The notes beneath the pieces are model-generated. The model saw only the letters and a list, made by a program, of their open reading frames with translations, was not told the DNA's origin and searched no databases. A DNA stretch of 64,000 nt from the NCBI RefSeq assembly GCF_050920415.1, contig NZ_CP169309.1; one strand, 5' to 3'. Below are positions 1,291 to 10,005 of this stretch, piece by piece. This DNA comes from Escherichia coli (lineage in GTDB: Bacteria > Pseudomonadota > Gammaproteobacteria > Enterobacterales > Enterobacteriaceae). The first letter of the stretch is position 1; each line of letters starts with the position of its first letter. Both the position numbers and the translations under genes were made by a program.

Positions 1291-2574
1291 ATGACAGAAG
1301 CGATGAAGATTACCCTCTCGACCCAACCTGCCGACGCGCGCTGGGGAGAAAAAGCGACTTACAGCATTAATAATGATGGTATTACCCTGCATTTGAACGG
1401 GGCAGACGATCTGGGGCTGATCCAGCGTGCGGCGCGCAAGATTGACGGTCTGGGCATCAAGCATGTTCAGCTAAGCGGTGATGGCTGGGATGCGGATCGT
1501 TGCTGGGCATTCTGGCAAGGTTACAAAGCCCCGAAAGGCACGCGTAAAGTGGAGTGGCCGGATCTGAACGATGCCCAGCGTCAGGAATTGGATAACCGCC
1601 TGATGATCATCGACTGGGTGCGTGACACCATCAACGCACCGGCAGAAGAACTGGGGCCATCGCAACTGGCACAGCGTGCTGTTGATCTGATCAGCAACGT
1701 CGCAGGCGATCGTGTGACTTACCGGATCACCAAAGGTGAAGATCTTCGTGATCAAGGTTATATGGGGCTGCACACTGTCGGGCGTGGTTCAGAACGTTCC
1801 CCGGTATTGCTGGCGCTGGATTATAACCCAACTGGCGATAAAGAAGCGCCGGTGTACGCGTGCCTGGTAGGTAAAGGCATCACCTTTGATTCCGGCGGCT
1901 ACAGCATCAAACAGACCGCGTTTATGGACTCAATGAAGTCTGACATGGGCGGTGCGGCAACGGTTACCGGGGCGCTGGCATTTGCCATTACGCGCGGTCT
2001 GAACAAGCGCGTGAAGCTGTTCCTCTGCTGTGCGGATAACCTGATTAGCGGCAACGCGTTCAAACTGGGGGATATCATTACCTATCGCAACGGTAAAAAA
2101 GTCGAAGTCATGAACACCGATGCGGAAGGGCGTCTGGTTCTGGCAGATGGACTGATTGACGCCAGTGCGCAGAAACCGGAACTGATTATCGATGCCGCGA
2201 CACTCACCGGTGCGGCGAAAACCGCGCTGGGTAATGATTATCACGCGCTGTTCAGTTTTGACGATGCGCTGGCCGGTCGCCTACTGGAGAGTGCCGCCCA
2301 GGAGAACGAACCGTTCTGGCGTCTGCCGCTGGCGGAGTTCCACCGTAGCCAGCTGCCATCTAACTTTGCGGAACTGAACAATACCGGAAGTGCGGCGTAT
2401 CCGGCGGGTGCAAGTACGGCGGCGGGCTTCCTGTCGCACTTTGTTGAGAACTATAAACAAGGTTGGCTGCATATCGACTGTTCGGCGACTTACCGTAAAG
2501 CACCAGTTGAACAGTGGTCTGCGGGTGCGACCGGGCTGGGTGTGCGCACGATTGCTAATCTGTTAACGGCGTAA
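1291..2574 (+). CDS. pepB: Peptidase B (M17 leucyl aminopeptidase family)
   Basis: ORF 1204-2574; likely ATG at 1291 (MTEAMKITL...) gives 427 aa; M17 motifs NTDAEGRL and catalytic domain. Confidence 0.9.
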
Positions 2575-2582
2575 ACTAATAT

Positions 2583-2681
<99 letters not shown>

Positions 2682-2716: not shown

Positions 2717-3493
2717 ATGTCCGAAACAAAAAACGAACTTGAAGACCTGCTGGAAAAAGCAGCAACTGAACCGGCGCACCGTCCGGCCTTTTTCCGTACT
2801 CTACTGGGATCCACCGTCTGGGTGCCTGGTACGGCGGCGCAGGGCGAGGCTGTGGTTGAAGATAGCGCGCTTGATTTACAGCACTGGGAAAAAGAAGACG
2901 GCACCAGCGTCATTCCTTTTTTCACCTCGTTAGAAGCACTTCAACAGGCGGTTGAAGACGAACAGGCATTTGTCGTAATGCCCGTTCGCACATTGTTTGA
3001 GATGACCCTTGGCGAAACGCTCTTCCTTAATGCCAAACTGCCAACCGGTAAAGAATTTATGCCGCGTGAAATCAGTTTGCTGATTGGTGAAGAAGGGAAT
3101 CCGCTGAGCAGTCAGGAAGTACTGGAAGGCGGTGAATCGCTGATATTATCGGAGGTTGCAGAGCCGCCAGCGCAAATGATTGATTCACTTACCACCTTAT
3201 TTAAAACCATTAAGCCGGTGAAGCGTGCTTTTATTTGTTCAATTAAAGAGAACGAAGAGGCACAGCCTAATTTACTTATTGGCATTGAAGCCGATGGTGA
3301 TATCGAAGAAATTATTCAGGCGGCGGGAAGTGTAGCGACCGATACATTACCTGGCGATGAACCCATCGATATTTGTCAGGTGAAAAAAGGGGAAAAAGGA
3401 ATTAGCCACTTTATTACCGAACATATTGCGCCATTCTATGAACGTCGCTGGGGGGGATTCCTGCGTGATTTTAAACAGAATCGAATAATTTAA
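2717..3493 (+). CDS. sseB: Enhanced serine sensitivity protein SseB
   Basis: ORF 2708-3493; ATG at 2717 gives 258 aa; conserved neighbour of pepB and sseA. Confidence 0.85.
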   Translation: MSETKNELEDLLEKAATEPAHRPAFFRTLLGSTVWVPGTAAQGEAVVEDSALDLQHWEKEDGTSVIPFFTSLEALQQAVEDEQAFVVMPVRTLFEMTLGETLFLNAKLPTGKEFMPREISLLIGEEGNPLSSQEVLEGGESLILSEVAEPPAQMIDSLTTLFKTIKPVKRAFICSIKENEEAQPNLLIGIEADGDIEEIIQAAGSVATDTLPGDEPIDICQVKKGEKGISHFITEHIAPFYERRWGGFLRDFKQNRII

Positions 3494-3494
3494 A

Positions 3495-3948
3495 ATATGC
3501 CGCCCCAAAGGGCGGCATTCGGGCTTACTTGCTGTTCTGAAGGTTGTTAACCATCAGTAAATTGTTGCCGGAGGGACTCCGGTTATTATTTACCTCGGTT
3601 AACAGCGCACCAGAAACAATAAGTACGATACAGAAGTACCGTATCTTCATTGTGCGGTCCATGCGAAGACCGCATCACGACAGCACCACTGGCGATATTG
3701 CCGCGATAGCAAGCGCTGTGGGGTGCCTGCATTTACGGTCATGGAACATCCTTTCCTAAAGCCAGCGCCCGTTTGCGAGACGGCGAAAAGGGCCGTCACG
3801 AATAATACCCTCATATTTGAATAATTACTCTATTTATTATCTTGACTTAGCCAGGCATAAAAGAGAGTATTTCAACACTGTGGGGTGCCTGCGTTGCTCC
3901 GGCAACACAAGTCAACCTGCTGGAAAGGCCGCGAACCAGACCAGCAAT
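3495..3948. ncRNA. ryfA: Intergenic region expected to carry the RyfA small RNA (boundaries and strand not resolved)
   Basis: Recollection that ryfA lies between sseB and sseA in E. coli K-12; region has hairpins (3499-3516, 3651-3675), a 15-nt direct repeat ctgtggggtgcctgc at 3715 and 3878, and is flanked by a bidirectional terminator. Confidence 0.3.
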
Positions 3949-3976
3949 AAAAAACCGCCAAATTCGGCGGTTTTTT
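3949..3976. terminator. Bidirectional rho-independent terminator (aaaaaaccgccaaattcggcggtttttt)
   Basis: GC stem with A-tract upstream and T-tract downstream, just past the sseA stop. Confidence 0.65.
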
Positions 3977-3992
3977 ATTGCCTGTAAAAAGC

Positions 3993-4838
3993 TTATTTCT
4001 CTGGCTCAACCGGTAAATCGGCCCGTGCGCCCCATTCACTCCATGCGCCGTCGTACAGTTTCACGTTTGGCACATCCAGCGTCGCGAGTGCTAACAAAAC
4101 CACGGCTGCCGTTACACCAGAACCGCAACTGACGATAATTGGTTTGTCGTAGCTGACACCGCGACCAAAAAATATCGCATCCAGTTCATCGGTCGTTTTT
4201 AGTTCGCCTTCACGTACCAGTTCTGTCCACGGAACGTTCAACGCGCCGGGAATGTGCCCGCGACGTAAACCTGGGCGAGGTTCATCAACTTCTGCATTAA
4301 AACGTGCAGCCGGGCGGGCATCAATAATTTGCGCCGTATTTTCATGGCTTGCCAATAACACATCGGTTACTTTCACCACAGCCTCAGGATTAAACGCAGC
4401 GTTAAACTCACCTTCTCGCAGCGCTACTGCACCTTCTTCTAATAACAGATCATCACGCTGCCAACCTGCAAGTCCACCACCCAGAATCGACACTTTCTCT
4501 ACACCAAAGGTGCGCAGCATCCACCATGCGCGTGGGGCTGAGAAAAGATTACCTTCGTCATAGACAATCAGGTGCTTATCCTGGTTAACGCCTAACTCAC
4601 GCATTGCAACGGCGAACGTTTCCGGGCGCGGCAGCATGTGCGGAAGCGGGGAATTGTGATCAGAAAGCGCTTCGATATCGAAAAACACTGCGCCGGGAAT
4701 ATGTCCATTCAGATACTCCTGGGCAACGTTACGATCTTCCTGTCCAGGCGGTGCCATGCGGGCATCGATAATCTGAATTTCCGGGTCATCAATATGTTCG
4801 GCGAGCCAGTCGGCTCCTACAAACCATGTCGTGGACAT
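3993..4838 (-). CDS. sseA: 3-mercaptopyruvate sulfurtransferase (tandem rhodanese domains)
   Basis: ORF 3993-4850; start at MSTTWFVGADWL (4838) gives 281 aa; active-site CGSGVTA motif. Confidence 0.9.
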   Translation of the reverse strand: MSTTWFVGADWLAEHIDDPEIQIIDARMAPPGQEDRNVAQEYLNGHIPGAVFFDIEALSDHNSPLPHMLPRPETFAVAMRELGVNQDKHLIVYDEGNLFSAPRAWWMLRTFGVEKVSILGGGLAGWQRDDLLLEEGAVALREGEFNAAFNPEAVVKVTDVLLASHENTAQIIDARPAARFNAEVDEPRPGLRRGHIPGALNVPWTELVREGELKTTDELDAIFFGRGVSYDKPIIVSCGSGVTAAVVLLALATLDVPNVKLYDGAWSEWGARADLPVEPEK

Positions 4839-5043
4839 AGGCATCTCCATTTTTGCCGGGTTAGGCTAAATTGTCGGATGTTTAGTGAAAAGCGACAAGC
4901 AAAAGAGGCTAATTTGGCTGTCTGAGCCACAATTCTCACTAAAATTCGGATTCCATGGGCACGATACTGAATTACATAACGTAAATTCTCACGCATAATA
5001 ATTATTCGACGTTGCTAACGGGCCATTGTGGCAGGGATGAAAA

Positions 5044-8000
5044 ATGAAAAAGTTACGCGTAGCCGCCTGCATGCTAATGCTGGCGCTGGCAGGGTGCGAC
5101 AACAACGATAACGCGCCAACAGCGGTGAAAAAAGATGCACCTTCTGAAGTTACTAAAGCGGCATCTTCAAAAAACGCGAGTTCAGCAAAACTCTCTGCAC
5201 CGGAGAGACAAAAACTGGCACAACAGAGTGCCGGTAAGGCGCTGACATTGCTGGATCTCTCTGAAGTCCAACTCGATGGCGCAGCCACGCTGGTGCTGAC
5301 CTTCTCTATCCCTCTCGACCCGGATCAGGATTTCTCGCGCGTTATTCACGTCGTCGATAAAAAAAGCGGCAAAGTGGATGGGGCCTGGGAGCTGTCAGAT
5401 AATCTTAAAGAGCTGCGTTTATGCCACCTCGAGCCGAAACGTGATTTGATCGTTACTATTGGCAAGGAGGTCAAGGCACTCAACAACGCAACCTTCAGTA
5501 AAGATTACGAAAAAACTATAACTACCCGCGATATCCAGCCCAGCGTCGGTTTTGCCAGCCGTGGTTCGCTGCTGCCTGGAAAAGTCATTGAAGGGCTGCC
5601 GGTAATGGCGCTCAATGTTAACAATGTCGATGTTAACTTCTTCCGTGTTAAGCCAGAATCTCTGCCAGCATTTATTAGCCAATGGGAATACCGAAATTCG
5701 CTGGCGAACTGGCAGTCAGACAAACTGCTGCAAATGGCGGATCTGGTTTATACCGGACGTTTTGATCTCAATCCTGCGCGTAACACCCGTGAAAAATTAT
5801 TGCTGCCGCTGGGTGATATCAAACCGCTTCAGCAGGCGGGTGTGTATCTGGCTGTGATGAATCAGGCTGGACGTTACGATTACAGTAATCCCGCGACGCT
5901 GTTTACATTAAGTGATATCGGCGTATCGGCCCACCGTTATCACAATCGTCTGGATATCTTTACCCAAAGCCTGGAAAACGGCGCGGCCCAGCAAGGAGTT
6001 GAAGTCTCATTATTAAATGAGAAAGGGCAGACTCTGACTCAGGCAACCAGTGATGCCCAGGGGCATGTGCAGCTGGAAAATGATAAAAACGCGGCATTAC
6101 TGTTGGCGCGTAAAGACGGTCAGACAACGCTACTCGATTTAAAACTTCCGGCGCTGGACTTAGCAGAATTTAACATTGCTGGCGCGCCAGGCTATAACAA
6201 ACAGTTTTTCATGTTTGGCCCGCGCGATCTTTATCGCCCGGGTGAAACAGTCATCCTTAATGGTTTATTGCGTGATGCAGACGGTAAAGCGTTGCCCGAT
6301 CAACCCATCAAGCTGGACGTAATTAAACCCGACGGGCAGGTACTCAGGAGCGTCGTTAGTCAGCCGGCGAATGGCCTCTATCACTTTACCTGGCCACTCG
6401 ATAGTAATGCGGCCACCGGCATGTGGCATATCCGAGCCAACACGGGCGATAACCAGTATCGGATGTGGGATTTCCACGTCGAAGATTTTATGCCAGAGCG
6501 CATGGCGCTGAATCTGAACGGTGAGAAAACCCCGCTAACGCCGAAAGATGAAGTGAAATTCTCCGTGGTGGGTTACTACCTGTACGGGGCGCCTGCTAAT
6601 GGTAATACTTTGCAAGGGCAACTTTTCCTGCGCCCACTGCGTGAAGCTGTGTCAGCCTTACCTGGTTTCGAATTCGGCGATATAGCTGCTGAAAACCTTT
6701 CGCGCACGCTGGATGAAGTTCAGTTGACGCTGGATGATAAAGGGCGCGGCGAAGTTTCTACAGAAAGCCAGTGGAAGGAAACGCATTCCCCATTACAGGT
6801 TATTTTCCAGGGCAGTTTGCTGGAGTCTGGCGGTCGCCCGGTGACGCGCCGTGCTGAGCAGGCTATCTGGCCTGCCGATGCATTGCCGGGGATCCGTCCG
6901 CAATTCGCCTCGAAATCGGTTTACGATTATCGCACTGACAGTACGGTAAAACAGCCCATTGTTGATGAAGGCAGTAACGCCGCTTTTGACATCGTATATA
7001 GCGATGCACAGGGCGTCAAAAAAGCTGTGTCTGGCTTACAAGTGCGCCTGATTCGCGAACGCCGCGATTACTACTGGAACTGGTCAGAAGATGAAGGCTG
7101 GCAGTCACAGTTTGATCAAAAAGATCTGATCGAAAATGAACAAACACTGGATCTTCAGGCTGATGAAACCGGTAAAGTCAGTTTCCCGGTAGAGTGGGGC
7201 GCTTATCGTCTGGAAGTCAAAGCGCCGAATGAAGCGGTCAGTAGTGTGCGTTTCTGGGCTGGCTATAGCTGGCAGGACAATAGCGACGGTAGCGGTGCTG
7301 TGCGACCAGACCGTGTCACGCTGAAACTGGATAAAGCCAGTTATCGCCCTGGTGATACCATTAAGTTGCACATTGCCGCGCCAACGGCGGGTAAAGGCTA
7401 TGCGATGGTCGAGTCCAGTGAAGGGCCGCTGTGGTGGCAGGAGATTGATGTTCCGGCACAAGGGCTGGATCTGACGATTCCGGTCGATAAAACCTGGAAT
7501 CGTCATGATCTTTATTTAAGTACACTGGTGGTACGTCCTGGCGATAAATCCCGCTCCGCGACGCCAAAACGCGCAGTTGGCGTGTTGCATTTGCCGCTTG
7601 GCGATGAAAACCGTCGTCTCGATCTGGCGCTGGAAACTCCAGCGAAAATACGCCCCAATCAGCCATTAACCGTGAAAATTAAAGCCAGCAATAAAAATGG
7701 TGAGATGCCAAAACAGGTGAATGTGCTGGTGTCTGCGGTTGATAGCGGTGTGCTGAATATTACTGATTATGTCACGCCAGATCCGTGGCAGGCATTCTTT
7801 GGTCAGAAACGCTATGGCGCAGATATTTACGATATTTACGGTCAGGTCATTGAAGGTCAGGGGCGTCTGGCAGCTCTGCGTTTTGGTGGCGATGGTGATG
7901 AACTGAAACGCGGGGGTAAACCGCCAGTAAATCACGTCAATATTGTTGCGCAACAGGCGCTACCGGTAACACTCAACGAACAGGGCGAAGGCACGGTTAC

Positions 8001-10005
8001 ATTGCCGATTGGTGATTTTAACGGTGAATTGCGCGTCATGGCACAAGCATGGACGGCAGATGATTTCGGTAGCAACGAAAGCAAAGTGGTTGTTGCCGCA
8101 CCGGTGATAGCAGAACTGAACATGCCGCGCTTTATGGCCGGCGGTGACACCTCACGTCTGACACTGGATATCACTAATCTTACCGAAAAACCGCAAAAAC
8201 TGAACGTTGCTCTGACCGCCAGTGGCTTGCTTGAACTGGTTAGCGATTCACCCGCAGCCGTTGAATTAGCGCCGGGCGTGCGAACCACGCTGTTTATCCC
8301 GGTGCGAGCATTGCCGGGTTATGGTGATGGTGAAATTCAGGCCACTATTAGCGGGTTAGCGTTACCGGGCGAAACCGCTGCCGATCAGCATAAGCAGTGG
8401 AAAATGGGTGTCCGTCCGGCATTTCCGGCACAAACCGTCAATTACGGTACGGCGTTGCAGCCTGGTGAGACATGGGCGATTCCAGCTGATGGATTGCAAA
8501 ACTTCTCGCCTGTTACGCTGGAAGGGCAATTGTTGTTGAGCGGCAAACCACCGTTGAATATTGCACGTTATATCAAAGAGTTAAAAGCGTATCCGTACGG
8601 TTGTCTGGAGCAAACCGCCAGCGGCCTGTTCCCGTCACTTTACACCAACGCAGCCCAACTGCAGGCGTTGGGAATCAAAGGCGACAGTGATGAGAAGCGC
8701 CGTGCGGCAGTCGATATCGGCATTTCTCGTTTACTGCAAATGCAACGTGATAACGGTGGCTTTGCGCTGTGGGATAAAAACGGTGATGAAGAGTACTGGC
8801 TGACGGCTTACGTGATGGATTTCCTGGTCCGCGCAGGTGAGCAGGGTTACAGCGTGCCGACAGAAGCCATTAACCGGGGGAATGAGCGTCTACTGCGCTA
8901 TTTACAAGATCCGGGCATGATGTCGATTCCGTATGCGGATAATCTCAAAGCCAGTAAATTCGCCGTACAGTCTTACGCTGCGCTGGTGCTGGCCCGTCAG
9001 CAAAAGGCACCGCTGGGTGCGCTGCGTGAAATCTGGGAGCATCGTGCCGATGCTGCGTCTGGATTACCGCTGCTGCAACTTGGCGTTGCGCTGAAAACCA
9101 TGGGCGATGCAACGCGTGGTGAAGAAGCGATTGTGCTGGCGCTGAAAACGCCGCGCAATAGTGATGAGCGGATATGGCTGGGTGATTACGGTAGTCCACT
9201 GCGCGACAACGCATTGATGCTCTCCTTGCTGGAAGAGAACAAATTGCTACCCGATGAGCAGTACCCTCTGCTGAACACACTTTCGCAGCAGGCGTTCGGT
9301 GAACGCTGGTTATCAACTCAGGAAAGTAACGCGTTGTTCCTGGCTGCCCGTACGATTCAGGATTTACCGGGCAAATGGCAGGCGCAAACGTCTTTCTCTG
9401 CTGAGCTGCTGACAGGTGAGAAAGCGCAAACCAGCAATCTGAATAGCGATCAACTTGCCACCTTACAGGTGACCAACAGTGGCGATCAGCCGTTATGGCT
9501 GCGTGTGGATGCCAGCGGTTATCCGCAATCCGCCCCTTTACCGGCGAGCAATGTGCTGCAAATCGAGCGCCATATTCTTGGCACTGACGGTAAGAGCAAA
9601 TCGCTGGATTCGTTACGTAGCGGCGATCTGGTACTGGTCTGGTTGCAGGTCAAAGCCAGTAACAGCGTGCCGGATGCTTTGGTCGTTGATTTACTGCCTG
9701 CTGGCCTGGAACTGGAAAACCAGAACCTGGCTAACGGCAGCGCCAGCCTGGAGCAAAGTGGTAGCGAAGTGCAAAACCTACTCAGTCAAATGCAACAAGC
9801 GAACATTAAGCATATTGAGTTTCGTGACGATCGCTTTGTGGCGGCGGTTGCCGTTGATGAATATCAACCAGTCACGCTGGTGTATCTGGCGCGGGCGGTA
9901 ACGCCGGGAACATACAATGTTCCGCAACCAATGGTGGAATCGATGTATGTTCCCCACTGGCGGGCGACTGGCGCGGCTGAAGATCTGTTGATTGTCAGAC
10001 CGTAA
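5044..10005 (+). CDS. yfhM: Alpha-2-macroglobulin family lipoprotein YfhM
   Basis: 1653 aa; lipoprotein signal with lipobox LALAGC; thioester-region motif CLEQ; followed directly by pbpC. Confidence 0.9.
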   Translation: MKKLRVAACMLMLALAGCDNNDNAPTAVKKDAPSEVTKAASSKNASSAKLSAPERQKLAQQSAGKALTLLDLSEVQLDGAATLVLTFSIPLDPDQDFSRVIHVVDKKSGKVDGAWELSDNLKELRLCHLEPKRDLIVTIGKEVKALNNATFSKDYEKTITTRDIQPSVGFASRGSLLPGKVIEGLPVMALNVNNVDVNFFRVKPESLPAFISQWEYRNSLANWQSDKLLQMADLVYTGRFDLNPARNTREKLLLPLGDIKPLQQAGVYLAVMNQAGRYDYSNPATLFTLSDIGVSAHRYHNRLDIFTQSLENGAAQQGVEVSLLNEKGQTLTQATSDAQGHVQLENDKNAALLLARKDGQTTLLDLKLPALDLAEFNIAGAPGYNKQFFMFGPRDLYRPGETVILNGLLRDADGKALPDQPIKLDVIKPDGQVLRSVVSQPANGLYHFTWPLDSNAATGMWHIRANTGDNQYRMWDFHVEDFMPERMALNLNGEKTPLTPKDEVKFSVVGYYLYGAPANGNTLQGQLFLRPLREAVSALPGFEFGDIAAENLSRTLDEVQLTLDDKGRGEVSTESQWKETHSPLQVIFQGSLLESGGRPVTRRAEQAIWPADALPGIRPQFASKSVYDYRTDSTVKQPIVDEGSNAAFDIVYSDAQGVKKAVSGLQVRLIRERRDYYWNWSEDEGWQSQFDQKDLIENEQTLDLQADETGKVSFPVEWGAYRLEVKAPNEAVSSVRFWAGYSWQDNSDGSGAVRPDRVTLKLDKASYRPGDTIKLHIAAPTAGKGYAMVESSEGPLWWQEIDVPAQGLDLTIPVDKTWNRHDLYLSTLVVRPGDKSRSATPKRAVGVLHLPLGDENRRLDLALETPAKIRPNQPLTVKIKASNKNGEMPKQVNVLVSAVDSGVLNITDYVTPDPWQAFFGQKRYGADIYDIYGQVIEGQGRLAALRFGGDGDELKRGGKPPVNHVNIVAQQALPVTLNEQGEGTVTLPIGDFNGELRVMAQAWTADDFGSNESKVVVAAPVIAELNMPRFMAGGDTSRLTLDITNLTEKPQKLNVALTASGLLELVSDSPAAVELAPGVRTTLFIPVRALPGYGDGEIQATISGLALPGETAADQHKQWKMGVRPAFPAQTVNYGTALQPGETWAIPADGLQNFSPVTLEGQLLLSGKPPLNIARYIKELKAYPYGCLEQTASGLFPSLYTNAAQLQALGIKGDSDEKRRAAVDIGISRLLQMQRDNGGFALWDKNGDEEYWLTAYVMDFLVRAGEQGYSVPTEAINRGNERLLRYLQDPGMMSIPYADNLKASKFAVQSYAALVLARQQKAPLGALREIWEHRADAASGLPLLQLGVALKTMGDATRGEEAIVLALKTPRNSDERIWLGDYGSPLRDNALMLSLLEENKLLPDEQYPLLNTLSQQAFGERWLSTQESNALFLAARTIQDLPGKWQAQTSFSAELLTGEKAQTSNLNSDQLATLQVTNSGDQPLWLRVDASGYPQSAPLPASNVLQIERHILGTDGKSKSLDSLRSGDLVLVWLQVKASNSVPDALVVDLLPAGLELENQNLANGSASLEQSGSEVQNLLSQMQQANIKHIEFRDDRFVAAVAVDEYQPVTLVYLARAVTPGTYNVPQPMVESMYVPHWRATGAAEDLLIVRP

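Follow-up and report, generated by a model that had tools for sequence, protein, structure and literature searches.

The sseB–sseA spacer and its predicted transcripts

In the window, by which we mean the whole stretch of 64,000 nt of Escherichia coli DNA analysed here, sseB and sseA are convergent, as the initial annotation had described, and the features found in and around the spacer between them are collected in Table 1. An Rfam scan matched the ryfA family (RF00126) on the minus strand over the full length of the model (1–296/296; 312.6 bits against a gathering score of 80, E 1.8e-87), which confirms what had been proposed as a probable RyfA locus. Two complete E. coli genomes match the region 3400–4100 with 100% identity, and in a 100%-identical genome the RefSeq gene timP corresponds to the minus-strand coding sequence of Table 1. 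The minus-strand ryfA RNA folds with a z-score of −5.8 by comparison with shuffled sequences. Further Rfam matches within 3898–4020 (AgrB, rimP leader, IS128 and RNAI) were rejected as terminator-driven, all being below their gathering scores.

Table 1. Features of the sseB–sseA spacer, in window coordinates.
Feature	Position	Strand	Description
sseB	stops at 3493	+	convergent with sseA
timP mRNA (RNA first annotated as sRNA RyfA)	3492–3796	−	5' end predicted at 3794–3796
timP intrinsic terminator	3497–3518	−	9-pair hairpin with 7 G-C pairs and tail ATTTTAAATT; corresponds to the 3' hairpin in the Rfam model
timP CDS	3525–3650	−	41 aa, MKIRYFCIVLIVSGALLTEVNNNRSPSGNNLLMVNNLQNSK; small hydrophobic inner-membrane toxin by family
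SL4	3653–3674	−	stable hairpin hiding the timP Shine-Dalgarno just upstream of the ATG at 3650; inverted repeat I24
Site 4	3668–3673	−	GCGGUC; SL4 5' flank
SL3	3674–3707	−	loop GCCAGUG (3687–3693) is pseudoknot site 3
24-codon ORF	3675–3749	−	ATG complementary to 3747–3749
SL2	3709–3730	−	holds the TimR-binding site
TimR-binding site, repeat copy 1	3716–3733	−	within SL2 (5' arm and loop) and including the variable CACCC block; co-varies with the seed
Site 2	3735–3740	−	GACCGU, complementary to the SL4 5' flank (site 4); read from sequence; conserved in the alignment
SL1	3751–3790	−	CGCUGGC (3761–3767) is pseudoknot site 1; Rfam consensus structure and pair counts
Candidate timP −10 hexamer	3802–3807	−	TATTAT, 6–8 nt upstream of the Rfam 5' end; read from sequence
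TimR promoter	3842–3870	+	−35 TTGACT (3842–3847), 17-nt spacer, −10 GAGTAT (3865–3870)
TimR sRNA (RyfB1/STnc2070 homologue)	~3877–3981	+	~105 nt; start predicted to within ~2 nt
TimR 5' seed, repeat copy 2	3878–3895	+	pairs with timP 3716–3733
TimR terminator	3944–3981		inverted repeat I1, 19-nt arms, 95% complementary; flanked by an A-run and a T-run
sseA	stops at 3993	−	convergent with sseB

The timP transcript would be approximately 303 nt long, with TimP encoded in its 3' half behind a 146-nt 5'UTR of four stem-loops. A candidate for its −10 element is the TATTAT hexamer of Table 1, at which ATAATAC stays the same in divergent E. coli alleles although the flanks vary. At the other end, the hairpin that had been read at 3499–3516 as a minus-strand terminator was recovered at slightly wider limits by a terminator scan of that strand and is assigned to timP. 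The initial annotation had considered strand and ends unassignable from sequence; promoter-like hexamers and homology now allow us to predict a timP mRNA running from ~3794/3796 to 3492 on the minus strand and a TimR RNA running from ~3877 to 3981 on the plus strand.

The product of the timP open reading frame matched the NCBIfam profile NF040796 (toxic_TimP) with 83.1 bits (cut-off 45, E 1.1e-23; residues 1–39 on profile positions 1–39/40), and this match, together with the RefSeq gene, substantiates the earlier suspicion that a small TimP-like toxin was hidden here. Homologous timP reading frames of 38–42 aa are intact in 19/19 loci, and the N-terminal signal-like segment is conserved in all 19 (7 genera). 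In Salmonella, ryfA is the mRNA of the 38-aa membrane toxin TimP, which on over-expression is toxic and damages the membrane, and whose translation is repressed by TimR (PMC7667032).

The 15-nt direct repeat as TimR seed and timP target

The initial annotation had noted an exact 15-nt direct repeat in the spacer, for which it offered no explanation. The repeat, CTGTGGGGTGCCTGC, is present at 3716–3730 and 3878–3892; the second copy lies where it had been placed, whereas the first had been set one nucleotide off, at 3715–3729. With one mismatch it extends to 18 nt (3716–3733 versus 3878–3895). No further match turned up in the 64-kb window when up to 2 mismatches were tolerated; shuffled sequences gave a mean of 0.10 matches and in 0/100 shuffles were there two or more.

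The second copy begins 7 nt downstream of the GAGTAT hexamer. This promoter geometry was found in 16/16 loci (7 genera), with TTGAC[AT], a 17-nt spacer, NANNAT and 7–8 nt to the start of the helix, and among E. coli alleles the two hexamers are conserved but the spacer between them diverges. A sigma-70 consensus scan returned no promoter here at its threshold, the GAGTAT −10 being weak, and the promoters are accordingly predicted from positional conservation rather than from the consensus scan. Downstream, 3944–3981 folds as a 16-bp hairpin in the plus-strand TimR RNA; the consensus terminator scan missed it, with the T-run absorbed into the stem. Given the symmetry of its flanking A-run and T-run, this hairpin probably also terminates the convergent sseA transcript, in keeping with the strong bidirectional terminator that had been reported at 3949–3976. 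From the placement of promoter and terminator, TimR is predicted to be a plus-strand sRNA of ~105 nt with the repeat at its extreme 5' end, and promoter-like hexamers and homology likewise suggest that this 5' end lies at the seed. The spacer thus holds a putative sRNA gene with its own promoter and intrinsic terminator, adjacent to and divergent from timP, with a 5' end complementary to SL2 of the timP 5'UTR. TimR folds with a z-score of −4.1. The TimR stretch matched no Rfam family, and TimR is unannotated in the RefSeq records examined; a divergent ~100-nt transcript was observed in S. dysenteriae (PMC5333039), TimR has been seen on Northern blots of Salmonella, UPEC CFT073 and APEC CH138 (PMC13188913), and the divergent timP/TimR arrangement was found throughout enterobacteria (PMC7667032). 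Northern blot or RNA-seq data bearing on transcription of the two RNAs in vivo come from Salmonella, S. dysenteriae, UPEC CFT073 and APEC CH138.

The 15-nt repeat is the TimR seed and its timP target. In the timP leader, the loop of SL2 and its 5' arm are complementary to the TimR 5' end, which is why the repeat exists; with the two genes transcribed divergently, stretches that pair as RNA read as a direct repeat at the DNA level. The duplex comprises 18 bp with one G.U pair (3893/3731) and has an energy of −37.5 kcal/mol (RNAduplex); its target lies at least 66 nt upstream of the timP start codon, as in Salmonella. A second inverted repeat, I2 (3563–3582 with 3888–3907), was considered as a further pairing site and rejected, the two RNAs sharing sequence there instead of being complementary.

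Conservation of the pairing was assessed in a small set of 16 loci that covers 7 genera, includes three E. coli alleles and contains several close relatives. The 15 further loci in it, all Rfam-confirmed as ryfA, come from Escherichia, Citrobacter, Superficieibacter, Yersinia, Rahnella and Erwinia. They were retrieved by a contig search with the loose pattern GCGGTCNNNGCANNGACCGCAC, which lies in SL4 and yielded 15 Enterobacterales loci and no Salmonella among the at least 120 matches listed; comparison with Salmonella is made via the literature. TimR and target segments were put in register by conserved flanking motifs and not by complementarity, and duplex energies were calculated with RNAduplex on short motif-anchored segments. 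Across the 16 loci, 95.9% of seed–target cells pair, compared with 29–48% when the partner is slid by 1–3 columns, and both sides have changed in 10/20 pairs. Double-change cells number 54, against 16.2 ± 3.4 in shuffles, a value reached in 0/500 of them. Cognate duplexes range from −30.8 to −39.2 kcal/mol, while non-cognate combinations average −21.4.

These data bear directly on whether the repeat might be a functionless relic of local duplication or a chance match. Short repeats in two copies do often arise by chance, and tandem duplications of the timPR locus occur in K-12 and other strains; the chance expectation here, however, is 0.10 matches per window with 2 mismatches allowed, and the predicted 5' end of the unit framed by promoter and terminator falls exactly on one of the copies. 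Moreover, both copies change together with complementarity kept in at least 3 E. coli alleles and in 7 genera. We therefore give a relic or coincidence virtually no weight, a reading already refuted by the covariation. The covariation, the duplex energies and the shared TimR promoter geometry together argue that the seed–target pairing is under selection.

The timP leader and its proposed switch

The timP leader is conserved as structure: over the whole structure 96.7% of cells are paired in the 16-sequence alignment, versus 37–50% in slid controls. The 7-bp pseudoknot between SL1 and SL3 (3761–3767 with 3687–3693), published for Salmonella (PMC11228461), is paired in 100% of cells of the 16 loci, with 3/7 pairs changed on both sides. 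The inverted repeat tgcggtc...gaccgca that had been noticed at 3651–3675 proved to be SL4, its TGCGGTC and GACCGCA arms occupying 3653–3659 and 3668–3674 and forming a hairpin in the minimum-free-energy fold. SL4 pairs in 100% of the 16 loci, an invariance that says little because the loci were retrieved by the SL4 pattern. The functions of SL4 and site 4 are known from Salmonella work (PMC11228461, PMC13000454), and site 2 is homologous to Salmonella C57-C58-G59 (PMC13000454). The leader of the window therefore combines a Shine-Dalgarno-sequestering SL4, the SL1–SL3 pseudoknot and complementarity between sites 2 and 4. With these assignments, a named functional element can be attached to each of the four structural observations of the initial annotation.

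The pseudoknot and switch mechanism was established in Salmonella (PMC11228461, PMC13000454) and is extended to the window by homology. In the inactive fold of the primary timP mRNA, site 1 would be paired with site 2 and SL4 would hide the Shine-Dalgarno sequence. In the active fold, the pseudoknot between sites 1 and 3 would be combined with long-range pairing of sites 2 and 4, by which the Shine-Dalgarno would be freed; the switch would require no RNA processing. TimR would bind SL2 of the active fold and destabilise the pseudoknot, so that initiation would be blocked from a site more than 60 nt ahead of the ribosome-binding site, and on depletion of TimR the toxin would be made and insert into the inner membrane, causing leakage. 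All of the sequence elements needed by the Salmonella mechanism are, as read from the DNA, present in the window. Taken together, we hold with high confidence that the sseB–sseA spacer is the enterobacterial type I toxin–antitoxin locus timPR, including the repeat as TimR pairing site and a switch of the Salmonella type.

Production of TimP in E. coli is a step that we still infer, and it is here that a different role for the locus has to be weighed, in which E. coli RyfA acts mainly as a non-coding, trans-acting sRNA in stress resistance, fimbriae and virulence, TimR is its partner or sponge and the repeat mediates sRNA–sRNA titration. Deletion of ryfA in UPEC and APEC has strong phenotypes, which in APEC were independent of the putative peptide and were attributed to the RNA; the TimP peptide was undetected in E. 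coli, and deletion of timR in the APEC study was nearly neutral (PMC13188913). In Shigella, no translation of RyfA1 was detected (PMC5333039). Yet the 41-aa timP reading frame is intact in every locus and genus compared, with its signal-like N-terminus conserved, and its product matches a curated toxin family; SL4 with its Shine-Dalgarno, the pseudoknot and sites 2 and 4, through which translation is gated, are conserved too, which would make no sense if the RNA were purely non-coding. We regard a mainly non-coding RyfA as unlikely, while recognising that the two roles are compatible and that RyfA as a dual-function RNA is a live possibility.

Besides timP, the minus strand of the leader carries the short open reading frame that the initial annotation had given as its example of a possible small protein. 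The reading frame exists, although it has 24 codons with an ATG opposite 3747–3749 rather than 23 codons with an ATG opposite 3750–3752, and it is not the toxin: its product gave no family match in the NCBIfam profile search and is not conserved. It overlaps the TimR site and spans the hypervariable block of the leader, an overlap that a regulatory uORF coupled to timP translation might show, and it is intact with 24 codons in the E. coli A and B alleles, Superficieibacter and Rahnella, with a conserved C-terminus (...ISPVVL(S/T)). That conserved tail, however, coincides with the conserved RNA helix of SL3; only 5 codons of the frame (MFRDR) are left in E. whittamii and in the C allele, a type whose sequence most E. 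coli genomes carry, and in Yersinia, Erwinia and Citrobacter its start codon is missing. In Salmonella, mutation of the start of a nearby uORF overlapping the TimR site left timP translation unaffected (PMC11228461). A second small protein or a regulatory uORF is accordingly very improbable, and the 24-codon frame is most likely not a gene.

Alleles within E. coli and comparison with known systems

The spacer is unusually polymorphic in E. coli: ~577 of 5,425 complete genomes are at least 95% identical to the window and 4,820 are at 80–90%. Across E. coli alleles the timP RNA is nearly invariant except for one block in SL2; this target block and the 5' end of TimR are the hypervariable parts, and they switch together among three alleles. 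In allele A, that of the window and of O157:H7, seed and target share CTGTGGGGTGCCTGC; in allele B, represented by strain MMC-J-0091 (L003) and found as the timP target of K-12, they share GCTGTGAA[A/G]CACCTGC, the difference being a G.U pair; and in allele C, the type in most genomes, they share CGCTGAGACGCGCTTGC. The A seed is predicted to pair with the A target at −37.5 kcal/mol, but with the B and C targets at only −23.3 and −17.2 kcal/mol respectively. SL2 RNA at 3716–3730 reads GCAGG-CACCC-CACAG and so contains the CACCC version of a variable region for which TGTTT, CGCGT, CCCCC and CACCC were described in Shigella/Escherichia in 2017 (PMC5333039). The window is thus a CACCC (RyfA1-like, A-type) specificity allele with a matching TimR seed, and a clean natural example of seed and target co-varying within one species.

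The A-type TimR sequence was present in 579/5,426 complete E. coli genomes, many of them O157:H7 or O145, and the C-type sequence in 4,550 complete E. coli genomes. The TimR-side count (579) agrees with the number of genomes in the identity band of at least 95% (577), while a megablast search with the A-type target segment found 266 genomes, an undercount, as single-base differences in O157 break the 28-nt seed word.

The repeat may have a further consequence. With copies of 15–18 nt lying ~160 bp apart, it could be a built-in deletion substrate at which recombination or slippage removes SL1 and both promoters, silencing toxin and antitoxin together. A collapsed repeat junction at the canonical position, with the TimP reading frame intact, was found in 3/19 loci (C. 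amalonaticus, Y. aleksiciae and Y. similis). In a related vein, alleles A, B and C and at least one orphan type would be mutually orthogonal, leaving a mismatched or orphan TimR, as in K-12, free for other targets. We put these proposals forward as tentative, and consider them possible but on balance doubtful.

The identification of timPR in the window is correct but ordinary, as the system has already been described. The locus, toxin reading frame, antitoxin sRNA, pairing site, variable-region alleles and translational switch are all published and timP is annotated in RefSeq, so that as a discovery the locus is of little weight. The coordinates, strand, seed and promoter of TimR given here for this allele, as predicted from sequence, have their practical value in annotation.

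The closest counterpart is timP/TimR of Salmonella enterica (ryfA/STnc2070; Andresen et al. 2020; Eleftheraki & Holmqvist 2024; Eleftheraki et al. 2026), which has the same families and divergent layout as the window. Both have an SL1–SL4 leader with the 7-bp SL1–SL3 pseudoknot and complementarity of sites 2 and 4, and in both TimR pairs by its 5' end over 18 nt with SL2, which lies more than 60 nt ahead of the ribosome-binding site; for Salmonella a compensatory-mutation test of this pairing was reported (PMC7667032). TimP differs in length, with 41 aa in the window versus 38 in Salmonella and in-frame insertions in the poorly conserved C-terminal half, and the seed/target sequence (A-type CACCC) also differs. 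Site 2 reads GACCGU in the window and GGCCGU in the E. coli B allele, Citrobacter, Superficieibacter and three Yersinia loci; by inference, the GACCGU of the window should make the pairing of sites 2 and 4 fully Watson-Crick and weaken that of sites 1 and 2.

In S. dysenteriae, RyfA1, which Fris et al. treated as non-coding, has a divergent ~100-nt sRNA, RyfB1, with 16–17/18 nt complementary to the RyfA variable region, and the CACCC of the window is one of the four iterations described there, RyfA1-like (Fris et al. 2017, PMC5333039). RyfB1 lowers RyfA1 and not RyfA2 (PMC5333039), an allele-specific regulation that matches the predicted energy gaps between the alleles reported here. S. dysenteriae has ryfA1 and ryfA2 in tandem, whereas the window has a single copy.

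K-12 ryfA occupies the same sseB–sseA position and has an annotated timP CDS, as in the window, in a spacer that is ~87% identical to that of the window but ~320 bp longer. Its timP has a B-type (TGTTT) target and there are two TimR genes, with what is left of a second timP 5' end between them; the proximal gene has a C-type seed, which is non-cognate, and the distal gene a B-type seed, which is cognate.

Without sequence homology to either, timPR resembles zorO-orzO and tisB-istR-1 in having a divergent neighbouring antitoxin sRNA and a small hydrophobic membrane toxin, and in that the sRNA is complementary over ~18 nt to a part of the toxin 5'UTR lying far upstream of the ribosome-binding site. 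Activation of the zorO and tisB toxin mRNAs depends on 5' processing or on a ribosome standby site, whereas for timP a structural switch alone, with no cleavage, is reported to suffice. The comparison with both systems was also drawn by Fris et al. (PMC5333039).

Spacer alleles and the K-12 arrangement

Comparison of 5,425 E. coli genomes showed the sseB-sseA spacer to be much more divergent within the species than usual core DNA; with identity to the window distributed bimodally, at ≥95% in ~577 genomes and 80–90% in 4,820, and at 90–95% in only 28. This distribution fits the existence of discrete alleles rather than gradual drift. The timP/TimR locus seems to be a hotspot of duplication and recombination.

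In K-12 MG1655 (L002), the spacer is ~320 bp longer and contains two TimR genes, a layout that is also found in locus L005. The TimR gene adjoining timP carries a C-type seed that is mismatched to the B-type (TGTTT) target of K-12 timP, and the predicted interaction energy of this proximal pair is ~−24 kcal/mol versus −34 to −37 kcal/mol for cognate pairs; the cognate B-type seed is that of the distal TimR gene. What remains of a second timP 5′ end (16 nt), with its promoter region, separates the two TimR genes.

In strain MSB1_8G an additional, 'orphan' TimR-like gene is present, whose seed is of a fourth type (AGTAGACGAGATACACTTGC) and which has no matching timP; in strain P276M the 3′ part of timP is replaced, sseB is pseudogenised and a further seed variant is present.

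Coordinates of features in the window and in comparison loci (L-numbers)
Feature	Location	Details
sseB-sseA spacer	window 3480-4000	
Inverted repeat ACTCTATTT...AAAGAGAGT	window 3823-3835 and 3860-3872	brackets TimR -35 hexamer
timP RNA nt 58 (site 2)	window 3739	
REP-like palindrome, pepB-sseB spacer	window 2569-2613	
K-12 MG1655 locus	L002 301-1145	
'Orphan' TimR-like gene, MSB1_8G	L010 1800-1960	
Locus with replaced timP 3′ part, P276M	L006 500-1290	
Collapsed timP/TimR locus	L088, reverse complement of 7751-8360	
Collapsed timP/TimR locus	L124 5101-5450	
Collapsed timP/TimR locus	L079 (Y. similis), reverse complement of 4251-4860	
Ysr224 (Yersinia sRNA family)	L079 4361-4467	same strand as collapsed ryfA; RF02770, 133.9 bits

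Collapsed loci in Citrobacter and Yersinia

C. amalonaticus, Y. aleksiciae and Y. similis have a 'collapsed' layout, in which the seed/target motif occurs only once, the 3′ arm of timP stem-loop SL2 is fused straight to the TimR body, and ~160 bp with SL1 and both promoters are absent. This junction is exactly the product that would be expected of a deletion event with the two direct repeats as its endpoints. The TimP ORFs of the collapsed loci are intact (38–42 amino acids), and the full layout is kept in close relatives (L074, L014, L016 and L027).

In Y. similis, Ysr224 is located directly upstream of the collapsed ryfA, inserted so that a TimR-type terminator sequence flanks it on either side.

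Promoter region and timP leader

The inverted repeat around the TimR -35 hexamer could be an operator of the shared divergent promoter region; C and B alleles carry a perfect, tighter version of it (ACTCTCTTTTGCTTGACAAAAAGAGAGT). The palindrome in the pepB-sseB spacer gave a partial match to naRNA4/CssrE, whose 40.3 bits fall short of the gathering score (59.5).

In the window allele, site 2 of the timP leader reads GACCGU; the B allele has GGCCGU there, as do Citrobacter, Superficieibacter and three of the Yersinia loci. According to the switch model in the literature, GACCGU would make the activating 2-4 pairing entirely Watson-Crick and leave the inhibitory 1-2 pairing with one pair fewer, a shift through which timP RNA from the window allele might more often adopt the translatable fold.
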